Assembly (NCBI RefSeq): GCF_029227855.1
Contig: NZ_CP074356.1
DNA from: Escherichia coli
GTDB lineage: Bacteria; Pseudomonadota; Gammaproteobacteria; Enterobacterales; Enterobacteriaceae
Length of the DNA: 64,000 bases
Strand: one strand, 5' to 3'
Shown: positions 15,203-15,955 of the stretch, one piece after another
How the letters are laid out: the number at the start of each line of letters is the position of its first letter
Numbering within the stretch: position 1 is the first letter of the stretch
Translations under genes and position numbers: made by a program
Notes under the pieces: generated by a model
The model's input: the letters and a program-made list of their open reading frames with translations, nothing else
What the model was told of the DNA's origin: nothing
The model's database searches: none

Positions 15203-15955
15203 ATGGCCGTACTGGGATTGCAGGGGGTGCGGGGAGGCGTGGGGACAACAACCATCACCGCCGCATTAGCCTGGTCATTACAAATGTTGGGAGAAAATGT
15301 TCTGGTGGTCGATGCCTGCCCGGACAACTTGTTGCGCCTGTCATTTAATGTTGATTTTACCCACCGTCAGGGCTGGGCCAGAGCGATGCTGGATGGCCAG
15401 GACTGGCGTGACGCTGGGTTGCGCTACACCTCGCAGCTCGATTTGCTGCCTTTTGGTCAGTTATCCATTGAAGAACAAGAAAATCCACAGCACTGGCAAA
15501 CCCGGCTGAGCGATATTTGCTCCGGCTTACAGCAACTAAAAGCCAGCGGGCGTTACCAGTGGATTTTAATCGACTTACCGCGTGATGCCTCGCAGATAAC
15601 CCACCAGCTGCTGAGTTTGTGCGATCACTCGCTGGCAATCGTCAATGTGGATGCCAACTGCCATATCCGACTGCATCAGCAAGCGCTGCCGGATGGCGCA
15701 CATATTTTGATTAATGACTTCCGTATTGGCAGTCAGGTTCAGGACGATATTTACCAGCTTTGGTTGCAAAGCCAGCGCCGATTACTGCCGATGCTCATTC
15801 ATCGTGATGAAGCGATGGCTGAATGCCTGGCGGCTAAGCAACCAGTAGGTGAATATCGCAGTGATGCGCTGGCGGCTGAAGAGATACTGACGCTGGCGAA
15901 CTGGTGCCTGTTGAACTACTCCGGGCTGAAAACGCCAGTCGGGAGTGCATCATGA
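15203..15955 (+). CDS. bcsQ: Cellulose biosynthesis protein BcsQ (MinD/ParA-like ATPase), intact
   Basis: 250-aa ORF with deviant Walker A GVRGGVGTT; codon 6 is a sense codon here. ATGA overlap with bcsA. Confidence 0.9.
   Translation: MAVLGLQGVRGGVGTTTITAALAWSLQMLGENVLVVDACPDNLLRLSFNVDFTHRQGWARAMLDGQDWRDAGLRYTSQLDLLPFGQLSIEEQENPQHWQTRLSDICSGLQQLKASGRYQWILIDLPRDASQITHQLLSLCDHSLAIVNVDANCHIRLHQQALPDGAHILINDFRIGSQVQDDIYQLWLQSQRRLLPMLIHRDEAMAECLAAKQPVGEYRSDALAAEEILTLANWCLLNYSGLKTPVGSAS

Follow-up and report, generated by a model that had tools for sequence, protein, structure and literature searches.

Organization of the bcs locus

The window, meaning the whole 64-kb stretch of Escherichia coli DNA that was analysed, carries the nine genes bcsRQABZC and bcsEFG in two divergent operons, with coordinates and lengths matching the K-12 annotation (Table 1). 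All nine have exactly the K-12 lengths, start with ATG and lack internal stops; the same bcs gene names appear in the RefSeq annotation of strain NCTC8623, whose DNA is nearly identical here. Following the order on the window, the intergenic distances are −4 bp (bcsG/bcsF), −4 bp (bcsF/bcsE), +272 bp (bcsE/bcsR, divergent), +11 bp (bcsR/bcsQ), −4 bp (bcsQ/bcsA), +10 bp (bcsA/bcsB), +6 bp (bcsB/bcsZ) and −19 bp (bcsZ/bcsC), the negative values being overlaps between neighbouring genes. A preliminary description of this DNA had listed nine full-length bcs genes with overlaps of 4 and 19 bp, and both the lengths and the overlaps were confirmed.

In cellulose biosynthesis, BcsA and BcsB polymerise UDP-glucose into a β-1,4-glucan when c-di-GMP binds the PilZ domain of BcsA, while the synthase depends on BcsR and BcsQ for its expression and assembly. 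The chain is exported by BcsC and trimmed by BcsZ, and phosphoethanolamine (pEtN) is added in the periplasm by BcsG under the control of BcsE and BcsF.

Table 1. Coordinates of the bcs genes and associated features in the window.
Feature	Coordinates	Strand	Remarks
bcsG, pEtN transferase, 559 aa	11295..12974	-	K-12 length; TIGR03368, 818.7 bits against a cut-off of 410
bcsF, 63 aa	12971..13162	-	Identical to K-12; passes TIGR03493
bcsE, c-di-GMP-binding protein, 523 aa	13159..14730	-	Passes NF011619
Divergent bcsE/bcsR promoter region, 272 bp	14731..15002	.	Every base as in K-12 MG1655
bcsR (yhjR), 62 aa	15003..15191	+	Identical to K-12; passes NF040717
bcsQ, 250 aa	15203..15955	+	Intact
bcsQ codon 6	15218..15220	+	TTG (Leu); TAG in K-12 (alignment, NC_000913.3)
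bcsA, cellulose synthase catalytic subunit, 872 aa	15952..18570	+	Full length; passes NF008558 and TIGR03030
bcsA codon 432	17245..17247	+	TAC (Tyr), not TGC (Cys); FFYGS, not FFCGS
bcsB, 779 aa	18581..20920	+	K-12 length; passes NF008325
bcsZ, GH8 endoglucanase, 368 aa	20927..22033	+	Passes NF008305
bcsC, outer-membrane channel with TPR repeats, 1157 aa	22015..25488	+	NF008520 over residues 1-1157
pdeK (hmsP), c-di-GMP phosphodiesterase, 662 aa	25570..27558	+	K-12 length; passes NF008807; adjoins the bcs operon
Anomalous block, 10.6 kb	about 27897-38529		No match to K-12 or NCTC8623

The nine Bcs products all scored above their NCBIfam equivalog cut-offs and were matched over essentially their full length; for BcsR, the match spans its entire short model. 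With the exception of BcsA, they are common natural alleles: each of the other eight proteins occurs on at least 1,000 contigs, as established by exact look-up for, among others, BcsG, BcsB and BcsC. Differences from K-12 include three conservative substitutions in BcsG (residues 58, 344 and 489), a single one in BcsE (E52A) and five in BcsB; the five in BcsB are common to NCTC8623. NCTC8623, the closest complete genome, carries a private substitution of its own, Trp80Leu in BcsG, where the window retains the common Trp (position 12736, codon 80).

Motifs expected of the individual components were present throughout. BcsG contains its catalytic and zinc-binding residues C243, S278, H396, E442 and H443. 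BcsE has the RxGD motif, as RTGD at residue 415, and BcsZ has both E55 and D243. In BcsA, the glycosyltransferase family-2 signature (D, DxD, TED, QxxRW) was found as DCD360, HAKAGN338, TED455 and QRIRW493, and the c-di-GMP site of the PilZ domain (RxxxR/DxSxxG) as RRSHR696 and DFSDGG723. The product of the adjoining pdeK gene has been described as the local c-di-GMP sink at the cellulose synthase (PMC7397504). In gene content, order, orientation and overlaps, the locus thus reproduces the E. coli/Salmonella-type (type II) Bcs system of E. coli strains 1094 and AR3110.

The bcsQ allele

The bcsQ reading frame consists of 250 codons followed by TGA, and its translation is free of internal stops. 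The product matched NF007460 over residues 1-250 with 542.9 bits, against a cut-off of 399, and an exact protein look-up returned it on at least 1000 contigs. Only two of the 753 nucleotides differ from K-12 MG1655, namely nucleotide 17, within codon 6, and one synonymous position; restoring Leu6 in the K-12 sequence gives the same protein. The K-12 counterpart (b3534) is annotated as a pseudogene in NC_000913.3; it is the same gene at the same position, in contrast to which codon 6 of the window is the sense codon TTG. Both a complete 250-residue frame with Leu at codon 6 and a premature stop at that codon in K-12 had been proposed beforehand, and each was upheld: the alignment placed TAG in MG1655 opposite TTG in the window, and no misread stop was found.

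The two alleles were counted among 5,426 complete E. coli genomes with a 38-mer probe centred on codon 6, across whose central mismatch megablast cannot seed, so that alleles are counted separately. The TAG version was found in 349 genomes and the TTG version in 3,593, whereas the locus as such was matched in 5,302; most of the genomes outside both counts presumably have the locus with other single-nucleotide differences within the probe. All 60 TAG genomes that were sampled proved to be K-12 laboratory lines or genomes of K-12 size (4.5-4.7 Mb), and the carriers include MG1655, BW25113, DH5alpha, DH1, HB101, MC4100, J53, XL1-Blue and TG1. The stop is known to have arisen in the K-12 ancestor, and its reversal from TAG to TTG, as in strain AR3110, gives cellulose back (PMC7397504, PMC5944007). 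Given these counts, an intact bcsQ is the norm of the species outside the K-12 laboratory lineage; the finding is ordinary and already known. All it reveals about a strain is that it falls outside K-12, as most E. coli do, and it adds nothing new.

Host background

The preliminary description had further concluded from the intact bcsQ that the strain is not a K-12 derivative. The conclusion stands, but the reasoning from bcsQ does not, because AR3110 is a K-12 derivative with exactly this TAG-to-TTG repair (PMC7397504) and an intact bcsQ is by itself insufficient to exclude K-12. A repaired K-12 derivative of this kind would explain why BcsQ is the repaired K-12 protein and why bcsR, bcsF and the divergent promoter region are identical to K-12; gene lengths are likewise shared between the window and K-12/AR3110, as is the position of pdeK directly downstream. 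Against such an origin, bcsA differs from K-12 at 33 nucleotides and bcsC at 38, and across the window hundreds of mismatches bring the identity to MG1655 down to 98.8-99.2%. The identity to NCTC8623 is 99.98%, without a single indel, over positions 1-27896 and 38530-64000.

Three structural differences point the same way. Between yhjV and bcsG (9920-11292), the window has type I toxin-antitoxin modules of the ldr/rdl kind three times in tandem, built from a 483-bp unit in 2.8 copies that are about 95% alike and contain three rdlD Rfam matches and three Ldr reading frames, whereas K-12 has a single ldrD/rdlD module. The yhiS gene is free of the IS5 element (IS5T) that K-12 carries there. Finally, about 1.6 kb absent from K-12, encoding an ArsR/SmtB-family regulator and a permease, lies between arsC and yhiS (approximately 57972-60645), as in NCTC8623. 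A K-12 derivative with a repaired bcsQ was therefore rejected, in view of the roughly 1% divergence over the whole window, and we regard it as virtually excluded. The strain is a non-K-12 E. coli that is nearly identical to NCTC8623 in this region.

Some further elements were recorded along the window. The yhiS homologue of NCTC8623 is annotated as frameshifted. Two AgrB-family small-RNA matches (63123-63206 and 63354-63437) lie beside dinQ, and GadY (46235-46348) and ES205 (52127-52198) were found as expected for the region. An RtT element follows tRNA-Pro at 1685-1929.

A private substitution in the acceptor-site motif of BcsA

Nucleotide 17246 is A in the window and G in both K-12 and NCTC8623. 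As a result, the acceptor-site motif FFCGS is absent from the encoded BcsA, in which residues 430-434 read FFYGS, and in this respect the window departs from the type II systems of strains 1094 and AR3110. The change lies outside the bcsQ coordinates yet decides how the bcs locus is to be interpreted, and it had been missed in the preliminary description.

The tyrosine allele is private. A 39-mer containing the Tyr codon was found in none of the 5,426 complete E. coli genomes, against 3,857 for the corresponding Cys control. In a collection of 15 billion proteins, the exact Tyr-containing BcsA (WEP40879.1/WP_275877466.1) was present on one contig, of 4,870,650 bp, whereas at least 1,000 contigs carried the form with Cys. 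When compared with the E. coli BcsA structures 7lby, 9b8v and 9fmv, residue 432 was the sole difference across the 131 surrounding residues. The motif is shared by the solved BcsA of Rhodobacter sphaeroides (4hg6, 4p00, 5ej1), in which FFCGS spans residues 316-320 (4hg6, 4p00) and aligns with residues 430-434 of the window protein. The QTPH, TED and QxxRW motifs are common to both proteins, but Cys318 of R. sphaeroides is replaced by Tyr in the window.

Conservation at this position was assessed in the best 150 of 10,432 homologue hits, which are representatives of 50%-identity clusters with 48-99% identity to the query. Among the 146 that cover residue 432, cysteine occurs in 136, alanine in four, serine in four and threonine in two, and none has a large residue. 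Consistently, the tyrosine costs 7.3 bits in the TIGR03030 model and 6.2 bits in NF008558.

In published structural work, the acceptor site is made up of FFCGS together with QxxRW, and the acceptor glucose is hydrogen-bonded to the backbone carbonyl of Cys318 (PMC4849487, PMC6559022, PMC10237404). The equivalent loop of chitin synthases is placed in the channel, where it serves as a gate (PMC9556331). A search for mutagenesis of the FFCGS cysteine in the searchable literature returned structural and simulation papers only.

Reliability of the base call and the downstream block

The G-to-A change at 17246 might be a sequencing or assembly error, with wild-type FFCGS in the actual strain. Such an origin would fit a tyrosine allele that rests on a single contig from one deposited assembly, whose protein records include WEP40868, WEP40879 and WEP40883, and the same window holds a low-quality, probably chimeric block of 10.6 kb with 13 indel events. 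Outside that block, by contrast, no indel relative to NCTC8623 was found over 53 kb. In long-read assemblies, erroneous indels are more frequent than erroneous substitutions. Apart from 17246, the window differs from both NCTC8623 and K-12 at five positions, 6977, 26876, 39686, 45349 and 54866, of which two are intergenic (gadA-gadX and hdeA-hdeB) and three coding. The latter give DppD K202Q, PdeK T436S and YhjB P125S, each of which is seen again on independent contigs (2, 4 and 21, respectively), so that base calls in the flanks appear accurate and the point differences of the window look like real polymorphisms. Together with BcsA C432Y, they amount to four coding differences, all non-synonymous. 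We therefore consider an erroneous base at 17246 improbable. Two contigs that share Ser436 of PdeK with the window were considered as close bcsA relatives and rejected, since they have a different bcsA haplotype with Cys.

The block itself begins about 155 nt into dctA and ends inside rcdB, at a position where K-12 and NCTC8623 have dctA-yhjJ-kdgK-pdeH-yhjG-yhjE-yhjD-rcdB. It holds instead a copy of ghxP-yjcE-yjcF-actP-yjcH-acs-nrfA' (nrfA being incomplete) that is 99.84% identical to the locus of strain GB089. In other genomes, the ghxP-nrfA locus adjoins soxRS and pdeC; on the K-12 map, about 0.6 Mb separates it from bcs. The replaced and the replacing segments are almost equal in size, about 10.66 and 10.65 kb. 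Relative to GB089, there are 13 gap openings (15 bases), mostly single-base and in short base runs, and 2 substitutions, and the indels frameshift five genes (ghxP, yjcE, yjcF, actP and acs).

Probes of 140 nt across either junction were covered by none of the 5,426 complete E. coli genomes, and the other, shorter contigs retrieved for the PdeK and YhjB alleles of the window all have the normal dctA-yhjJ-kdgK-pdeH-yhjG-yhjE-yhjD-rcdB order. The junction-spanning and frameshifted products had no exact match in the protein collection, in which pseudogenes yield no records, with the exception of a GhxP of 183 residues. This truncated protein (27892-28443), caused by the loss of one A that turns AAAAA into AAAA, is found on 28 other contigs, and the recurrence may reflect either a sequencing-error hotspot or a real slippage site.

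Thirteen indels against two substitutions follow the pattern of sequencing error and not that of natural decay. A real translocation or duplication was accordingly judged unlikely as the origin of the block, as short indels outnumber the substitutions, and the block is probably an assembly artefact, that is, a chimeric, misassembled or otherwise spliced segment of low quality. Its presence calls for caution regarding source-sequence quality. Were it real, pdeH, which encodes the master c-di-GMP phosphodiesterase (PMC7397504), would be lost from the locus, with a bearing on matrix production.

Functional interpretation

From the intact reading frames, it had been proposed that the full cellulose machinery appears functional and that the strain makes pEtN-modified cellulose. 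Neither proposal is supported as stated. Both are called into question by the substitution in the FFCGS motif of BcsA, which is private and stands at a position occupied by small residues only in the 146 homologues; with a private substitution in a conserved motif, a working machinery cannot be read from intact frames. Published strains also show that intact bcs frames are no guarantee of production: H10407 and BL21 carry all bcs genes with no premature stop reported and are nonetheless calcofluor-negative at 30 °C (PMC5944007). Furthermore, the CsgD-dependent enzyme DgcC is required as a local c-di-GMP source for cellulose to be made (PMC7397504), and the regulators csgD, dgcC, mlrA and rpoS all lie outside the 64-kb window. 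Production of pEtN-cellulose by this strain is a prediction, unlike in strains 1094 and AR3110.

A case can nevertheless be made that the whole machinery works, with the tyrosine tolerated and pEtN-cellulose made whenever CsgD and DgcC are expressed. All nine frames are intact and their products pass the family cut-offs; the remaining motifs of BcsA, the catalytic residues of BcsG, RTGD of BcsE, and E55 and D243 of BcsZ are in place; and the promoter region is that of K-12, whose repaired derivative AR3110 is cellulose-positive (PMC7397504). In addition, the acceptor is contacted through the backbone of the FFCGS cysteine and not through its side chain, so that a substitution could be accommodated (PMC4849487). 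These points are weighed against the lack of tyrosine among the 146 homologues, where only C, A, S and T occur, and against an allele absent from all 5426 genomes and present on one contig of the 15-billion-protein collection. The cellulose-negative phenotype of H10407 and BL21 despite a full bcs set, and the location of the regulators beyond the window, likewise speak against full function, which we consider unlikely.

Since the position otherwise accepts only cysteine, alanine, serine or threonine, a bulky tyrosine is probably harmful. It would disturb either the acceptor site itself or the packing behind this site, thereby reducing or abolishing synthesis. We slightly favour the view that Tyr432 lowers or abolishes glucan formation. 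The more specific reading, in which C432Y is a real, naturally arisen mutation of the acceptor motif that inactivates or strongly attenuates the enzyme, is put forward tentatively, as falling a little short of an even chance. Of all features of the locus, C432Y has the greatest likelihood of determining the phenotype, and this singleton is the sole item of modest interest at the locus. Overall, we are confident in describing the region as an ordinary wild-type bcsQ (Leu6, TTG) in a complete E. coli-type locus of a non-K-12 host, intact by reading frame but of uncertain and probably impaired function.

Implications

The case carries a lesson of method, in that a set of full-length reading frames does not equate to a functional system, and a check at the level of reading frames is blind to a private missense change in the catalytic subunit.

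Natural losses of bcs function have been described in ST95 extraintestinal pathogenic E. coli (ExPEC), namely a BcsA frameshift at residue 186, BcsA W55*, BcsQ Q178* and a BcsG frameshift, and in ATCC 8739, with a stop in bcsE (PMC10881479, PMC5944007). Like these, the window has a lineage-private bcs mutation in an otherwise complete locus; it differs from them in that the mutation is a missense change within a motif, a singleton and not a clade marker, with an effect deduced from conservation only. If C432Y is inactivating, it would provide a small data point both on the loss of cellulose by natural E. coli strains and on what the FFCGS cysteine does. Some E. coli lineages are known to lose cellulose production convergently through nonsense and frameshift mutations, and C432Y would represent a missense route to such a loss. 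It would further give the first natural evidence of functional constraint on the side chain, besides the backbone, at the cysteine position of FFCGS.
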